From IMG/VR virus record IMGVR_UViG_3300037628_000643, positions 32,001 to 96,000 of that record: 64,000 nt of DNA, one strand, 5' to 3'. Source of the DNA: a virus. The position numbers were made by a program, and so were the translations under genes. Numbering within the stretch: the stretch's first letter is position 1; each line of letters opens with the position of its first letter. The notes beneath the pieces are model-generated. The model ran no database searches. It was not told the origin of the DNA and saw nothing but the letters and a program-made list of their open reading frames with translations. Shown one piece after another: positions 28,957 through 46,151 of this stretch.

Positions 28957-29279
28957 TATTCCTCCATTCCCTCAAGCTTATCGCCAATAACTTCAGCTAA
29001 ACTACCTCCGCCATTATAGTGATATGTGAAAAAAGAAATAGACCCATCATTATTTTTATCTACAATAGCAAAGCCGAACTCGTCTCCGTTAAATTCCTCT
29101 ATTTCAATTGTGTATGCGATACCGTTGATGACTTCGATATTATCAATCTCATCTCTCGCCCAACTAGTGTATGTCTTATGCCATGAAGGTAGTCTTGATC
29201 CCTCGAACTTCTTTTCGAAATATTCTTCCGCATCTTTGATAGGTATTAACGTGCCTTTATTTAATTCCATGTCGCTCAT
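28956..29279 (-). CDS. hypothetical protein
   Basis: 107 aa in operon. Confidence 0.7.
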   Translation of the reverse strand: MSDMELNKGTLIPIKDAEEYFEKKFEGSRLPSWHKTYTSWARDEIDNIEVINGIAYTIEIEEFNGDEFGFAIVDKNNDGSISFFTYHYNGGGSLAEVIGDKLEGMEE

Positions 29280-29293
29280 ATATTTTTCCTAAT

Positions 29294-30776: not shown

Positions 30777-31073
30777 CTAAGATTTTGAAAGCCTACCCAT
30801 TAAAGCTTCAGATATATTTACAAGTATTCTTCCTTTTGCATGAATAACCTTTACTCTTTGAGTCGTTTCAATTAAGCCCATTCTAAATGCAAGAATACCA
30901 AAAAGCTCATCAGCGAAACCTGAGGACATACTCATTACGTTAGAAAAGTCTAACCCAACAGTGCTTAAATCAGATATCTGCAAATCCACCTGATCTCTGT
31001 ATTTTATGGCTAGAACTCTTGTGCATGGGTCTGTTTCTGTGATAACAATTATGTTGTGAATTGTAGGATTCAT
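30777..31073 (-). CDS. STAS-like (DUF4325-type) protein
   Basis: V.LDFSNV..MSSGFADELFG; start moved to ATG 31073. Confidence 0.7.
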   Translation of the reverse strand: MNPTIHNIIVITETDPCTRVLAIKYRDQVDLQISDLSTVGLDFSNVMSMSSGFADELFGILAFRMGLIETTQRVKVIHAKGRILVNISEALMGRLSKS

Positions 31074-31507
31074 ACAGTTTCTCCATTTAGTCCTTCTCCG
31101 TTTTTGGAGTGCCACTCTATATGGTGTTTGCTACATAACCATCGCACAGAAAGTGGATCTGAATAGTCATCATGGTGGGCATTAGTTCTATGGGTATTTC
31201 CGCAAATTTCACATGGTTTTTTCTCTAACTTACCGTCTCTCACTGCATTACCCACTATTATTTGAGCATTTCTTTTTAATGGATTATTTTTAATCCATTT
31301 TTGCTTGCACTTAGCGCCAGACGCCTTTCCTTCTTTTGTCTTGCTGTATTCCTTCCTAGCAACAACCCTTTTCGGATTCATTGCCCTTGACTTGTCATAT
31401 GTACTCTGGCACTCTTTGCATTTTGGAGAAAGACCATCTGGACTAGCTGATCTCTTGCCAAACATTAATGATTCTTTTTCTTTGTTGCATGTCCTGCATA
31501 ACTTCAT
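31070..31507 (-). CDS. HNH endonuclease
   Basis: CxxC...CKEC N-terminus, PCEICG....AHHDDY..PL.VRWLC..HH..WH; start ATG 31507 with AGGAGA. Confidence 0.85.
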   Translation of the reverse strand: MKLCRTCNKEKESLMFGKRSASPDGLSPKCKECQSTYDKSRAMNPKRVVARKEYSKTKEGKASGAKCKQKWIKNNPLKRNAQIIVGNAVRDGKLEKKPCEICGNTHRTNAHHDDYSDPLSVRWLCSKHHIEWHSKNGEGLNGETV

Positions 31508-31519
31508 ATATTCTCCTAG

Positions 31520-31546
31520 AAAAAAAGGCCTCACTTAGAGGCCTTT
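31520..31546 (-). terminator. rho-independent terminator after SSB
   Basis: AAAGGCCTC-taagt-GAGGCCTTT plus T-run on - strand. Confidence 0.85.
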
Positions 31547-31607
31547 ATATTACCCATCAGAAGGGAATTTCGTCCGAATCGAAATCATCAAAATCGTTAC
31601 CAGTTAG

Positions 31608-32105
31608 CTAACTTTTATTTTGAAACGGATTAGCGCCCTGTTGAGCAGGAGAATTCCCCACCGCACCTTGAGCAGGAGCTGCAGTACCACCAATCGCCTT
31701 GGGGTTTTTAACCTCGTTTTTGTCTTCGTAGCCTTGACTCTTAACTACCTTGACCGTACCGGAGATCATTTTGCTAAGCAGATTTTTTGGGTCTAGCATC
31801 GCTTTTGGATCTGTTACGCCACATGCGTTGCATAGACGTCCATATTCTGAGCGAGCAACCTTATTCTCTGTTCCGTCTTTTTTGACAAGGTAGTAGTTCA
31901 TCCAGATCTTGCGACCATTGTATTTTTCGCCTACAACGTCGAGTACAACCTCAACATAAATAGAACTTTCATTTCCCTGCTTCGACTCAGAGCTTGCAAC
32001 AAGAAAGGTATTCTCATGCGCTTCCATCGCACCAAAATCACCGCCTTCCTGCATTTCTTGATCAATATTATCAAAGTTTGCGAAATCACCTAAATTAACT
32101 GTCAT
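31608..32105 (-). CDS. single-stranded DNA-binding protein (DUF669-type); possible readthrough extension to 31557
   Basis: G.KYNGRKIW, L..ACGV, KNEVK, Ala/Pro/Gln tail; next to Sak4. Confidence 0.85.
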   Translation of the reverse strand: MTVNLGDFANFDNIDQEMQEGGDFGAMEAHENTFLVASSESKQGNESSIYVEVVLDVVGEKYNGRKIWMNYYLVKKDGTENKVARSEYGRLCNACGVTDPKAMLDPKNLLSKMISGTVKVVKSQGYEDKNEVKNPKAIGGTAAPAQGAVGNSPAQQGANPFQNKS

Positions 32106-41772: not shown

Positions 41773-42483
41773 ATGACCAGACATGCGAGCAAAGATAAAA
41801 CTGTAACTGAACTCAAAAATTACAATAATGCTAATGGTATCGATAGATGGGAGCTGTCAAACGAACAAAAAGAACTATCAAAAATAATCTCCATGAGCGA
41901 TATGACGCTCGTCAGCGGAAAGGCTGGAGTTGGAAAAACAGCAGCTATACTTCATAATTACGTAAAAGAATACCTTTCAGATGTATCAAAGCACATAGTT
42001 ATCATTAGAACGCCAGTTGAGGTAGGGCTGGATAAGATAGGGTTTTTACCAGGAGATTCAAAAGAAAAGCTTGAACCTCACTTTGCACCTTTCAAGAAAA
42101 TTCTAGAGTTACTCATGTCAAAAGATAAGGTTAAGTGTGACCTTAATAAAAGAATACACTTTTCAATTCCTAACTTTTTGCTCGGAGATAGTCTGGACGA
42201 TTCTCTTATCATTGTTAGTGAGGCACAACAGCTCCCCAAAGAGGTTGTAAGGCTTATTATGGAGCGAGTAGGAAACAATTCAAAAATAGTCTTTGAGGGA
42301 GATGAATCTCAAAAATATACAACAACAGGAATTAGAAGCGGTCTTAGTCATGCTTTTGGTTTGTTTCAAAAACACCCAACGGAAGGTGTTGATTTCTATA
42401 CATTTAGTGGAAATACAAATATGAGGTCTGATTTTGTTGGAAGAATAAATAAAGTTTATGAATTAGAAGAAGACCGCGCTTGA
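41773..42483 (+). CDS. phoH: PhoH-family ATPase
   Basis: GKAGVGKT, IGFLPG...EK..P, EAQ, RVG..SK....GD..Q. Confidence 0.9.
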   Translation: MTRHASKDKTVTELKNYNNANGIDRWELSNEQKELSKIISMSDMTLVSGKAGVGKTAAILHNYVKEYLSDVSKHIVIIRTPVEVGLDKIGFLPGDSKEKLEPHFAPFKKILELLMSKDKVKCDLNKRIHFSIPNFLLGDSLDDSLIIVSEAQQLPKEVVRLIMERVGNNSKIVFEGDESQKYTTTGIRSGLSHAFGLFQKHPTEGVDFYTFSGNTNMRSDFVGRINKVYELEEDRA

Positions 42484-42556
42484 CAAGGCATATTTAATGT
42501 AAGATAATCCCTGTTGACAATTAGTTAACGGGGATTTTTTATGTTTGGAGAATTAA

Positions 42557-43015
42557 ATGACAGATAAACACAAAGCAATATCAGTAGCTGATGAATTATG
42601 CGAAAAATATTCATTTACAGTTCTGCAATTAGTCGCATCAACTCTATTTCAGAGAACAATAGAATTTAAAAGTAAAACAAAATGGATGTCATCAGAGGAT
42701 GATCTTCTGTCTACATTTTTCTATCTTTCATCAAAAGAAGAGTTATGCGAGGCATTACAGTGCACAATGGAGTCCCTTTATGTAAGAGCTAGAATGCTTG
42801 GTGTTGTGAGTCCGACTTTTGATACCTTAAGTTCATATGATCTTGGTATGGCACTTAGTTTATTTCAGGAAGGAAAAACACAAGAAGAGGTATTATCTCT
42901 ATTTGGAGTTTCAGCGACAACAACACCGATAAGAACTTTAACTTTAAGTAATTATAATGACATTGGAAATGCATTGAATCCAAAAGATAGTTCTCAGATG
43001 GAGTTGTTTGAATGA
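42557..43015 (+). CDS. hypothetical protein, possible DNA binding
   Basis: W...ED.LL and HTH-like segments. Confidence 0.55.
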   Translation: MTDKHKAISVADELCEKYSFTVLQLVASTLFQRTIEFKSKTKWMSSEDDLLSTFFYLSSKEELCEALQCTMESLYVRARMLGVVSPTFDTLSSYDLGMALSLFQEGKTQEEVLSLFGVSATTTPIRTLTLSNYNDIGNALNPKDSSQMELFE

Positions 43016-43785
43016 ATGAAGGTGTATGGCTAATGCATGGAGACTGCTTAGAGAGAATGAAGGAAATACCAGATGGAAGTGTAGATTTAGTATTAGCCGA
43101 TCCGCCATTTGGAACAACTCAATGTAAGTGGGATTCTATAATTGATTTGGATTTAATGTGGGATCAACTAAAAAGAGTGATTAAGCCTAATGGTGCTATT
43201 TTACTATTTGGACAAACACCATTTGACAAAGTCTTAGGCTGCAGTAACTTGCCTATGCTCAAGTATGAATGGATTTGGGAGAAAACAAGCGCAACAGGTC
43301 ATTTGAACGTAAAAAGATCACCGATGAAGGCACATGAAAATATATTGGTATTTTACAAGAAGCCACCTACATACAATGGACAAAAAACTACGGGACACAA
43401 AAGAAAAACAAGCAAAACAGGTAAAACATATAACAGCGCCTGTTACGGAGCCGAGTCAAAGAAGCCGGATTACGATAGCGATGAAAGGCACCCAAGAAGT
43501 GTTCAGGTGTTTAAAAGCGACAAGCAAAAATCGAAACTTGTTCCAACGCAGAAACCACTTGCGCTAATGGAGTATTTAATGAAAACATATTCTAATGAGG
43601 GTGAAGTAGTTTTGGATTTTACGGCTGGTTCATTTACAACTGGAGTTGCTTGTGTCAATCTTAATCGTAAGTTTATCGGGATAGAAATGGATGAAACTTA
43701 TTTTAATATTGGAGTTAACAGGATTGAGGAACGTATAAAGTGCCTAGATTTAAAGACAGAACTAATGACAAGCACGGAAGATTAA
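43012..43785 (+). CDS. N4/N6 DNA methyltransferase (beta class)
   Basis: GDCLE.M, DPPF motif IV, PTQKP, VLDFTAGS.TTG motif I. Confidence 0.95.
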   Translation: MNEGVWLMHGDCLERMKEIPDGSVDLVLADPPFGTTQCKWDSIIDLDLMWDQLKRVIKPNGAILLFGQTPFDKVLGCSNLPMLKYEWIWEKTSATGHLNVKRSPMKAHENILVFYKKPPTYNGQKTTGHKRKTSKTGKTYNSACYGAESKKPDYDSDERHPRSVQVFKSDKQKSKLVPTQKPLALMEYLMKTYSNEGEVVLDFTAGSFTTGVACVNLNRKFIGIEMDETYFNIGVNRIEERIKCLDLKTELMTSTED

Positions 43786-44324
43786 CTGTGATATCTCATG
43801 CAGGTAAAGACCATAGAAATAAGCATCTATGGCTTTGTTTATGCGACTGCGGAAATGAAAAAATAGTCGTCTCTGATAACTTGTCTAGCGGAAAGTCAAA
43901 CAGTTGCGGGTGCTTAAAGGCTGAGTTTTTGGCTAAAAAAGGAAACCAATGGGGTCTTTACGAAGATAGGGAGGTAGCATTATTAAAGGTTCAGTATAGC
44001 CACTTAAAAAGAAGAAATAGAAAGATGGGGTTTATTGGCGAGCTTAGCTTTGATTCTTTCTCATTAAAAGTGAAGTCTCCTTGCAGATATTGTGGTCTTG
44101 AGCACTCAAAGGAGGTTGAGGATAGATTAAATGAAAGCCCTAAGCAGAAAAGGCTATCAGACCATGTTCTGAAATGTAACGGCATTGACAGAGTTGATAA
44201 CAAAAAAGGATACGAAGATGAGAATTCTGTTTCTTGCTGTAAGTTTTGTAACTTTGCCAAGCACACAATGTCAGAAGATGATTTTTATTTATGGATAAAG
44301 AGGGTTTATGAATTTAACTTTTAA
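43740..44324 (+). CDS. HNH homing endonuclease
   Basis: GRLTV...WLCLCDCG, C.YCG, GIDRVDN.KGY...N.VSCC..CN.AK; GTG start. Confidence 0.85.
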   Translation: MPRFKDRTNDKHGRLTVISHAGKDHRNKHLWLCLCDCGNEKIVVSDNLSSGKSNSCGCLKAEFLAKKGNQWGLYEDREVALLKVQYSHLKRRNRKMGFIGELSFDSFSLKVKSPCRYCGLEHSKEVEDRLNESPKQKRLSDHVLKCNGIDRVDNKKGYEDENSVSCCKFCNFAKHTMSEDDFYLWIKRVYEFNF

Positions 44325-44325
44325 C

Positions 44326-44433
44326 AGCACAACTGGGGTAGCTGCAAAAAAGCTCAATAGAAAGTTCATTGGAATAGAAAAATTCGAAAAAGAATTCAAT
44401 ATCGCAGAAAAAAGAATTAAGGAGTCTAAATGA
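44326..44433 (+). pseudogene. stranded former 3' end of the methyltransferase
   Basis: STTGVAAKKLNRKFIGIEKFEKEFNIAEKRIKESK* aligns to the MTase C-terminus; TGA overlaps dnaN ATG. Confidence 0.88.
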
Positions 44434-45530
44434 AATTCACAATCAAAGTCGAAGACCTAAGATCAGCACTTTCTTCTTTATCTTCTATAATACCCAAGAA
44501 GCACTTCAACACATACATCACCAATACGCTAGCATGTGTTAGTGATTCAGTTGTGGCTTTTACTGGTTACAATGAAGCTATACAGAAGACTGTAAGAGTG
44601 GAATGTACAGCGCAGGATTCAATGGAAATACTGTTTGACTACAACAAGGTCAACAACCTTTCAAAGATGCTTCCAGATGGAAAAATGGTGACTTTTACTG
44701 TAAAAGACGGTAAGCTTGTGGTCTCGTGTGGTAAAAGCAGAAGCACGCTATCATTGTCTGATGTTAGTTCGTATCCAAGCATGACTATTGATGAGCTCAC
44801 TGTTATTGATCATGATCCAAAGGAGTTATCAGAAAGTATCGATACTGTTTTTCATGCATCTGATCGAGATAATGCCAAGCACGAGATAAACGGCGTAGCA
44901 ATGATATCTGGAAACGGAACTGTTGATGTGGTTGCCACAAATACAGCAAGATTATCAGCCTGCAAATTACCAACAAGCAGTAGCGAATCTTTTTCCATGA
45001 TAATTCCGTACTCATCCGTATCGTCTGTTTCAAAATCACTAGCTGCAGCAACTAATGTTGGTACTGATGGAAGGAATTTAGTGGTAGCAGGAGATGACTT
45101 TTTGCTTGTTTGTCAGCTTTTTGATGGCAAATATGTGCCATATGATAGGGTGATACCTAGTGATAATACCATCACTAATAAGTTAACTTTTAGCAAAGAA
45201 AATATGGTTAACGCATTAAAGAGAATTATTGCAATAGCAGAAAATTCATACGCAACAACGTGTGTTATTACAGCTGATACCGGAACAGTTGATGCAACGA
45301 TTCAGGGTAACAACTCTTTAGGAGGTAAAGATGAAATTATTGAAGTTATACCAATGACAAACGATTCAAAAGAGTCTTTTTCTATTGGATTTAATCCAAG
45401 GTTTATTATGGATGCATTATCCAAGATAAGCAACGAGACTGTGAACTGTACTATTCATTCAGGTGGATTTTCTATGTTAAAGTTTTCTGAAGGAAATTTC
45501 GTAGCCATTATCACTAAAAAAATAATTTAA
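44430..45530 (+). CDS. dnaN: DNA polymerase III beta sliding clamp
   Basis: 366 aa; MKFTI, S.YP, VATNT.RL, G.Y.PY.RVIP, IGFNPRF..DAL. Confidence 0.9.
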   Translation: MKFTIKVEDLRSALSSLSSIIPKKHFNTYITNTLACVSDSVVAFTGYNEAIQKTVRVECTAQDSMEILFDYNKVNNLSKMLPDGKMVTFTVKDGKLVVSCGKSRSTLSLSDVSSYPSMTIDELTVIDHDPKELSESIDTVFHASDRDNAKHEINGVAMISGNGTVDVVATNTARLSACKLPTSSSESFSMIIPYSSVSSVSKSLAAATNVGTDGRNLVVAGDDFLLVCQLFDGKYVPYDRVIPSDNTITNKLTFSKENMVNALKRIIAIAENSYATTCVITADTGTVDATIQGNNSLGGKDEIIEVIPMTNDSKESFSIGFNPRFIMDALSKISNETVNCTIHSGGFSMLKFSEGNFVAIITKKII

Positions 45531-45575
45531 TATTAGTGGTAGTATTTAGCGTGTTAATTAATAATGGAGAACTAA

Positions 45576-46151
45576 ATGGAAGATAATAGAGCAGTACTTG
45601 AGCCATATAATGAGCCTGTTGAAATTAACAGGTACTCATTTCACTTAGACGAAGATATTGAAAGACCTTCTTATTACAGAACCATGATAGAGGTAATGAC
45701 TGGATGCTCTCGCGCTGATGAAGTTACAATCTATTTTAATACTGATGGTGGTAGTTACGATGGAATGATTTCAATCATACATGCGATTAAGGCTTGTCAA
45801 TGCCCAGTTGTTGGAATACTATACGGTAAGGCATATAGTGCGGGAGCTGGAATACTGCTTAATTGCACTGATATCTATGTTGGAGAAAATGCCTCTATCA
45901 TGGTGCATTCTGGATTTGACGGTATTGGAGGGAAGGTGTCTGACATTAAGGCTTATGTTGATTTTTCAAACAAAGAAAATACAAGGTTTATCAATAATGT
46001 TTATAGTGACTTTTTGACAGGTGACGAAATGAACAGGGTTGAAAGGGGTGACGATCTTTTCTTTGACTCTAAGGAATCAAAAGAAAAACTTGATTTAATG
46101 TTCAAGAAAAAACACGCAAATGCTATTGTGAATAATGAGCCTGTTCATTAA
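45576..46151 (+). CDS. ClpP-like serine protease
   Basis: IYFNTDGGS, G.AYSAG, IMVH. Confidence 0.8.
   Translation: MEDNRAVLEPYNEPVEINRYSFHLDEDIERPSYYRTMIEVMTGCSRADEVTIYFNTDGGSYDGMISIIHAIKACQCPVVGILYGKAYSAGAGILLNCTDIYVGENASIMVHSGFDGIGGKVSDIKAYVDFSNKENTRFINNVYSDFLTGDEMNRVERGDDLFFDSKESKEKLDLMFKKKHANAIVNNEPVH

Follow-up and report, generated by a model that had tools for sequence, protein, structure and literature searches.

Homing without an intron is reportedly carried out by the free-standing endonucleases SegF, SegG, and MobE of T-even phages, in work attributed to Belle et al. in 2002, Liu et al. in 2003, and Wilson and Edgell in 2009. In these phages the nuclease gene adjoins the gene that is cut, and it spreads by break repair, co-converting flanking polymorphisms that protect the donor. 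A different arrangement is found in fungal mitochondria, where mobile endonuclease ORFs (mORFs) insert together with a foreign C-terminus. Examples are atp6 of Allomyces macrogynus and atp6, atp9, cox2, and nad3 of Glomus sp. (PMC3630166, citing Paquin et al. 1994). In actinophages, the ShiLan element is an HNH gene hidden out of frame inside DNA methylases (PMC11855218, PMC9957025). Finally, in Lactococcus phage phi93, PHEasePhi93I is described as a putative homing endonuclease between M.Phi93I and M.Phi93DAM (PMC4190342). The subject of this text is a locus in a stretch of 64,000 nucleotides of viral DNA, positions 32,001 to 96,000 of IMG/VR record IMGVR_UViG_3300037628_000643; the whole stretch is called the window. 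In this locus a DNA methyltransferase (MTase) gene is followed by a gene for a putative HNH-type homing endonuclease, and then by a second, stranded copy of the MTase 3' end, here called the relic.

An intron-less and intein-less homing cassette of about 0.7 kb, made up of a diverged MTase 3' end and the HNH gene, very probably occupies S-adenosylmethionine (SAM) motif I of this MTase. The probability of this explanation is put at roughly 0.85.

The source record is 104,021 bp long and rated complete, and all features of the locus lie on the + strand. The MTase open reading frame (ORF) at 43012-43785 encodes 257 aa and matches PF01555 over residues 24-233 (E 5.9e-30; 105.3 bits against a cut-off of 26.7) as well as phrog_67 (E 6e-82). 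It fits the beta-class N6/N4 type, with motif IV (DPPF/Y) preceding motif I, and its motif I reads Gly-Ser-Phe, not Gly-Ser-Gly. Two parts can be distinguished within the gene. The native body (43012-43623; PF01555, phrog_67) contains motif IV as DPPF, the variable target-recognition part, and the block before motif I. The cassette-borne replacement end (43624-43785, stop at 43783-43785) is closest to the active ends of other HNH-bearing loci (81-88%). Its motif I is recoded to Ala-Gly-Ser-Phe (43624-43635); the final ~35 conserved residues come next, and a 15-codon tail completes it. This tail overlaps the start of the HNH gene, the two genes sharing 46 nt.

The HNH gene (43740-44324, stop TAA at 44322-44324; phrog_374 and phrog_1035) encodes 194 aa. 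Its start signals (43726-43742), a ribosome-binding site (RBS) GAGGAA at 43726-43731 and a GTG start at 43740, lie within the MTase coding sequence. Behind the HNH gene stands the relic (44326-44433), which consists of 35 codons of the original MTase 3' end. Its frame begins with Ser at 44326, continues with Thr-Thr-Gly from 44329, and closes with its own stop, TGA, at 44431-44433. The next gene (44430-45530) encodes a dnaN-like sliding clamp (PF00712, PF02767, PF02768; phrog_947, E 2.7e-53) and is the original downstream neighbour of the MTase. The translation signals of dnaN sit within the relic (44419-44433): the RBS AAGGAG occupies 44419-44424, and the ATG at 44430 overlaps the TGA of the relic as ATGA.

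Taken alone, the relic matches the last 29 positions of PF01555 (profile positions 193-221, E 4.8e-6). It is identical to the active end at 21 of 32 residues (BLASTP E 2e-12). At the DNA level the mean column identity is 71%, and many of the differences are synonymous, so the relic represents a second copy that has diverged, as opposed to a recent target-site duplication. The offset between the active and relic copies is 693 nt, which places them in one frame, but stop codons at 43783-43785 and 44296-44298 close that frame on the way from one to the other. Beyond the active MTase and the relic, no further PF01555 match is found anywhere in the 104-kb genome. GC content is 0.35-0.39 over cassette and flanks, which is uninformative on foreign origin. 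An earlier note on this DNA, made from the sequence alone, had described the triplet of MTase, HNH gene, and relic abutting dnaN, together with the ATGA overlap, and had called the relic a diverged allele instead of a target-site duplication. All of these features are present, the homologies above chance by PF01555 and BLASTP, and the many synonymous changes agree with the view of a diverged allele.

The relic frame also contains an ATG at 44308, following AAGAGGG, which gives a possible 41-codon ORF (44308-44433, + strand) whose stop overlaps the start of dnaN. This ATG derives from conserved Tyr-Glu codons of the HNH C-terminus, and recurs in relatives for that reason.

The same arrangement recurs in many other viral sequences. 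In IMG/VR, nine contigs carry an HNH 63-81% identical to that of the window, and in seven of the nine a complete MTase precedes the HNH gene and a 3' fragment of an MTase immediately follows it. A metagenome scan using an alignment of these IMG/VR HNHs yielded 80 further loci. Both sources were pooled into a set of 47 loci with an HNH at least 60% identical to the window HNH. A motif I MTase end is present in 41 of the 44 loci with at least 200 nt upstream, and a relic in 38 of the 43 with at least 130 nt downstream. The full triplet is found in 35 of the 40 loci with both flanks. More distant HNHs (35-47% identical) stand in the same layout in several contigs.

The junctions of the inserted DNA are fixed. 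The first relic codons are the Thr-Thr(Gly) of motif I in all 38 loci, 4-10 nt past the last aligned HNH codon. The HNH stop and one base come before the relic, and in 24 of the 38 they are followed by GGN, which corresponds to the final Gly codon of Gly-Ser-Gly. In the active copy, this position is occupied by Phe (TTT) in 37 of 43 loci. HNH-free alleles have Met-Gly-Ser-Gly at motif I; in the active copy the residue preceding Gly is Ala in 27 loci and Met in 11, a mixture suggesting that co-conversion tracts on the left vary in length. The offset from active copy to relic is 690, 693, or 696 nt in 22 of the 38 loci. Given these fixed junctions, compared over the 38 loci, the minimal inserted block in the window is 43633-44325, or 693 nt. 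It opens with the Phe codon TTT, which stands in for the final Gly codon of Gly-Ser-Gly, continues with the replacement 3' end and the HNH gene, and ends with the TAA plus one base. The probable break point, judged from the aligned sequences, lies between the Ser codon and the last Gly codon of Gly-Ser-Gly.

Some loci depart from this pattern. In two contigs (L007:3140-4594 and L010:2991-4585), an HNH gene of this family (75% and 63% identical) immediately follows an MTase and no relic is present; L007 retains a normal Gly-Ser-Gly end. These could be donor-type free-standing arrangements, or loci from which the relic was lost. Two others hold decaying cassettes without a relic. In L012:3201-4198 an in-frame stop stands where the MTase otherwise has a conserved Trp codon, and the HNH is cut to 66 aa. 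In L013:4001-4243 the HNH is cut to 81 aa.

Evidence that the replacement end travels with the HNH gene, and not with the MTase body, is provided by comparing identities along the locus. Among six loci, the replacement ends share 83% of their residues and the HNHs 78%, with third-codon-position identities of 0.56 and 0.50-0.52. The corresponding values are 72% and 0.42 for the motif IV block of the MTase, 33% and 0.30 for its variable part, and 63% and 0.37 for the relics; third-position identities along the MTase body span 0.30-0.45. The proposal of a mobile unit consisting of MTase 3' end and HNH gene is thus in keeping with what is found. Across nine carriers of this cassette type and the window, mean identity is 84% for active ends, 56% for MTase bodies, and 64% for relics, and the HNHs are 70-88% identical. 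A second cassette type (L005, L009) has ends that are 90% identical on bodies that are 51% identical. A plausible reason for this joint travel is that the RBS and start of the HNH gene lie inside the replacement end, so the nuclease gene cannot move without that stretch.

A tree of 151 MTase ends points in the same direction, although with 32 columns it is poorly resolved. On it the label 'active' takes 6 changes for 43 rows, and the 38 rows of relics, which lie intermingled with the native ends of MTases that lack an HNH, take 22. The nearest neighbours of the window relic in this tree are native or relic ends, not cassette ends. The window MTase is itself chimeric. Its body is nearest to that of an HNH-free MTase, L082 (75%; HNH-free relatives including P0008 are at 75-77%), whereas the closest matches to its end are the cassette ends of L012, L004, and L003 (81-87%) and not the ends of the nearest bodies. 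For MTase residues 1-205, a search of 5.8 billion proteins found no match above 77%. A tree of MTase bodies groups the carriers, except the window; its HNH-free members were drawn only from around the window MTase, and this tree is therefore not used as evidence. By the identities and the tree of ends, the element is more conserved than its host MTase gene and incongruent with it.

An example of filled, empty, and decayed alleles can be found in Lactococcus phages. The best GenBank matches to the window HNH are in phages PhiM1127 and phi93 (39% identity over residues 1-191, E 2e-36). There the gene order is terS, MTase, HNH, an unannotated relic (KP793132.1, 2242-2346), a Dam-type MTase, and terL. 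Phage Phi155 carries the empty allele, a single MTase that ends in Met-Gly-Ser-Gly followed by the exact relic sequence. Upstream of the junction, Phi155 and PhiM1127 are identical at 1213 of 1216 nt; over the relic and 595 nt downstream they are identical at 700 of 700. The PhiM1127 relic alone matches the native MTase end of Phi155 at 105 of 105 nt. The active end of PhiM1127 agrees with this native end at 58 of 96 nt and 19 of 32 aa. Relative to Phi155, 776 nt in PhiM1127 replace 13 nt, CATGGGTTCAGGA becoming TGCTGGTTCTTTC followed by the remaining 763 nt of the block. Presence and absence of the cassette among phages that are 99% identical shows that the family has been mobile recently.

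Decayed states are found in the same group. Phi40 has kept the foreign end and has lost the HNH gene and all but the last ~30 nt of the relic, and in phi145 the foreign end is fused to the last relic codons. The earlier note had taken the relic for the ancestral end of the gene, and the PhiM1127 relic is indeed the end found in HNH-free Phi155. The note had also expected HNH-free relatives to end in the relic-type C-terminus. This holds in Lactococcus, in Phi155; beside dnaN, where the expectation had been placed, no close relative was found. As a side observation, the upstream gene of PhiM1127 (L242, KP793132.1) is annotated as a 'cytosine MTase', whereas M.Phi93I/M.Phi145I, 99% identical to it, reportedly modifies adenine (GGWG6mA).

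An MTase with a foreign end of this kind can be active. M.Phi145I (mtPhi145-1, locus Phi145_02) was cloned by Murphy et al.; it methylates GGWGA and confers protection against HphI, and phi93 genomic DNA is likewise protected (PMC4190342). M.Phi145I is the ORF in L244 with an Ala-Gly-Ser-Phe end, that is, a foreign end with Gly-Ser-Phe as motif I. The idea that insertion keeps the gene functional is therefore tenable, and the SAM loop tolerates Gly-Ser-Phe in place of Gly-Ser-Gly. In the window, the active end keeps all nine strongly conserved positions and forms a complete, consensus-like C-terminus. Among HNH-free proteins of the window subfamily, the third residue of Gly-Ser-x is Gly in 81, Cys in 10, Phe in 8, Met in 2, Ala in 1, and Asn in 1 (counted over the 103 best hits where the motif could be located). 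Some Phe forms resemble cassette ends from which the HNH gene has been lost.

The product of the HNH gene is called HNH-type here on account of its PHROG profiles, its motifs, and a weak fold match of its predicted structure. The ORF matches phrog_374 'HNH endonuclease' (E 2e-19) and phrog_1035 'endonuclease VII' (E 1.4e-12). Its layout comprises an N-terminal CxC...CGC zinc module and a C-terminal CxxC...N...CxxCN nuclease module. Residues C115, C118, C167, C170, N162, and N171 are invariant over 10 relatives, and an Asp/Ser-His pair at 141-142 (H142) is nearly so. The start position is kept as ATG, GTG, or TTG in 10 aligned relatives. In an AlphaFold model (pLDDT 74), two short strands (149-151 and 163-165) and a helix (168-176) follow one another in the expected order. 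The best match of this model in the PDB is the HNH enzyme PacI (E 3e-3, probability 1.00, TM 0.37/0.48), followed by the Gme HNH nickase.

Related modules occur elsewhere. The N-terminal zinc module (residues ~7-62) matches three times in one 344-aa ORF at ~2228-2929 of the window (+ strand), and twice in a 313-aa ORF upstream of the window (G000 28999-29289). These repeated matches look like DNA-binding modules of the homing-endonuclease type. Contig L002 has more ORFs with the same N-terminal module around its cassette (207-467, 2009-2512, and 2373-2777), which looks like a homing-endonuclease hot spot. A second, unrelated HNH ORF of 154 aa lies directly downstream of an SSB-like gene in the window (31070-31534 and 31557-32105, both on the - strand).

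The following mechanism would account for the locus. In a mixed infection, the HNH protein would cut or nick an HNH-free MTase allele at or next to the Gly-Ser-Gly / Thr-Thr-Gly codons. Repair from the cassette-bearing allele would then use the MTase body as upstream homology and, presumably, the relic as downstream homology. The reading frame of the recipient would afterwards run from its own body into the foreign end and stop there. The recipient's own 3' end, from the cut site onwards, would stay untranslated behind the HNH gene as the relic, carrying the start signals of the next gene. The occupied allele should escape cutting, since the site carried by the cassette is recoded (Met-Gly-Ser-Gly to Ala-Gly-Ser-Phe, with 13 recoded nt) and the other junction offers no more than half of the split site. 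A later deletion could remove the HNH gene and the relic, leaving an MTase with a foreign end.

The relics as a group are little decayed. They keep a mean of 8.8 of the nine strongly conserved positions, the same as active ends, and all are open to a natural-looking stop. Such sparse decay in spite of old cassette lineages could mean that invasions are much younger than the lineages, implying a fast homing cycle. Alternatively, a relic could be retained for its homology, or for the start signals of the downstream gene.

The window relic keeps seven of the nine positions and is among the most decayed. Along with third-position identities of about 0.5 between the cassette and its relatives, this agrees with a single ancestral event of homing or illegitimate recombination, after which the cassette was passed on vertically and the HNH protein became inactive or took up another role. 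Polymorphic relatives of the window phage were not found, and decayed cassettes are known elsewhere (L012, L013, Phi40, and phi145). Such a fossil is nonetheless unlikely. The HNH ORF of the window is intact and retains every residue invariant in 10 relatives as well as its start signals, and the presence/absence polymorphism of the Lactococcus phages documents recent mobility of the family. On the homing explanation, the copy in the window would still be active.

Several points weigh against the homing cassette explanation itself. For every family member, cleavage at motif I is predicted from sequence. The decay of the window relic and the far-diverged synonymous sites of its cassette indicate that this copy may be old and may have lost its mobility. 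No close relative of the window phage, and hence no empty allele beside dnaN, was found: a megablast search of 42500-45600 against GenBank phages returned nothing, and searches with the dnaN protein in phages and in viral contigs returned nothing useful. The best dnaN match in the 5.8-billion-protein set is 64% identical and lies on contigs no longer than 1.5 kb. Compared over 31 aa, the ends of the nearest MTase bodies are slightly closer to the active end than to the relic (21.1 vs 18.6 matches), and only their first 17 residues lean to the relic. This excess likeness is attributed here to decay of the relic, and the consensus-like character of the active end is a further confounding factor. 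Lastly, the assignment of the nuclease leans on PHROG profiles and motifs; the ORF has no Pfam match at E<=0.01, and its resemblance to PacI is slight.

The relic could also be the remnant of a tandem MTase paralogue, most of which was deleted when a free-standing HNH gene landed between two MTases. Tandem MTase arrays do exist in some viral contigs (L104, L110-L112, and L138). This origin is nevertheless very improbable: the same motif I codon starts the relic directly after the HNH stop in 38 loci, the only MTase of the empty Lactococcus allele ends in a sequence identical to the relic at every base, and the genome of the window has no other PF01555 match. Two full tandem MTases among relatives, the outcome that the earlier note had named as speaking against its explanation, were not seen.

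Equally hard to sustain is the reverse assignment, in which the active end is native, the relic foreign, and the mobile unit consists of HNH gene plus relic, inserted downstream of an intact MTase. Phi40, which has the active end of PhiM1127 and lacks the HNH gene and most of the relic, could on its own be read as the state before such an insertion. However, the last ~30 nt of a relic stand behind its complete MTase, and only deletion from a triplet explains them. The change thus runs from triplet to deletion, which rules out a mobile unit of HNH gene and relic. In addition, PhiM1127 matches Phi155 perfectly over the relic and the DNA downstream but poorly over the active end, and across loci the active ends are conserved together with the HNHs while the relics are diverse.

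Removal of the insertion as a group I intron or intein, or read-through as in ShiLan with the relic as the true C-terminus, would fit the shared frame of the two copies at 693 nt, the GTG start, and the terminal TAA plus C (PMC11855218), but is scarcely credible given the two stops in the MTase frame, the already complete C-terminus of the active copy, and an Rfam scan of 42000-46000 at E<=1 that gave two weak chance hits to small RNAs and no intron family, in line with the earlier proposal of an element with neither intron nor intein.

The homing cassette of the window may further be a member of a large, undescribed family of end-replacing HNH cassettes directed at the motif I DNA of beta-class MTases, in which the relic, more than debris, is kept nearly intact as the downstream homology arm and for the start signals of the next gene. 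This wider proposal is tentative, and is held with clearly less than even confidence. If true, the family would span Lactococcus skunaviruses to environmental 100-kb phages. Its unit would be a self-contained alternative to introns and inteins within coding sequence, and read-through insertions of the ShiLan type could be a derived form. A literature search found no published account of end-replacing cassettes or of this family in phages, which does not prove that there is none. Both Lactococcus papers annotate only a putative homing endonuclease, and term searches of them found no mention of the relic, the chimeric MTase end, or the empty allele.

Such cassettes matter in several ways. They are a third way into coding sequence besides introns and inteins, in which the nuclease brings a spare gene end, and which is common in phages and not confined to fungal mitochondria. 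Since the stranded end marks the probable cleavage site, the specificity of the nuclease becomes predictable from sequence alone. The cassettes also account for short orphan 'methylase' fragments and chimeric MTase ends that annotation has missed, for instance the unannotated relic of PhiM1127. Cultured dairy phages offer a tractable system, with filled (phi93, PhiM1127), empty (Phi155-type), and decayed (Phi40, phi145) alleles.

Among the known systems, the free-standing nucleases of T-even phages are intergenic, use homology on both sides, and are not known to duplicate any part of the target gene. The cassette in the window, in contrast, lies inside an ORF and must bring a spare gene end. 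PHEasePhi93I belongs to a locus of the same layout, an MTase with an AGSF-type end, an HNH gene, and a relic. It is, however, only 39% identical to the window HNH, and its replacement end and host are different.

The ShiLan element is likewise an HNH insertion in a phage DNA methylase without intron or intein, and it too has a disjunct distribution (PMC11855218, PMC9957025). Both genes start with GTG and encode ~195 aa with zinc modules, and both insertions end in TAA plus C (PMC11855218). In both, the first residues of the insertion resemble those just downstream of the site. In ShiLan the methylase frame stays open through the insertion and the downstream part is the real C-terminus, whereas the cassette described here stops the gene and the downstream part is dead. 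Among the tblastn matches listed for the window HNH there is no Mycobacterium phage; homology to the ShiLan HNH is not established, no direct sequence comparison having been made.

The architecture of the cassette is already known from the fungal mitochondrial mORFs; the family in phages was not found described. In both cases an endonuclease gene travels with a diverged 3' end of the host gene and is inserted in phase, the native C-terminus is left downstream as an untranslated duplicate, and the native copy matches close relatives while the inserted copy does not (PMC3630166). Several features by which such an element can be recognized are found here too: an endonuclease ORF, an in-phase foreign end with a native duplicate, and, in the Lactococcus members, polymorphism at a precise site. 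The differences lie in host, nuclease, and target. The host is a phage genome instead of a mitochondrion, the nuclease is HNH-type instead of GIY-YIG or LAGLIDADG, and the target is a non-essential DNA methyltransferase. Finally, unlike in the mORFs, the endonuclease gene starts inside the replacement end instead of being fused in phase, and one family recurs on a single site across very different phages.

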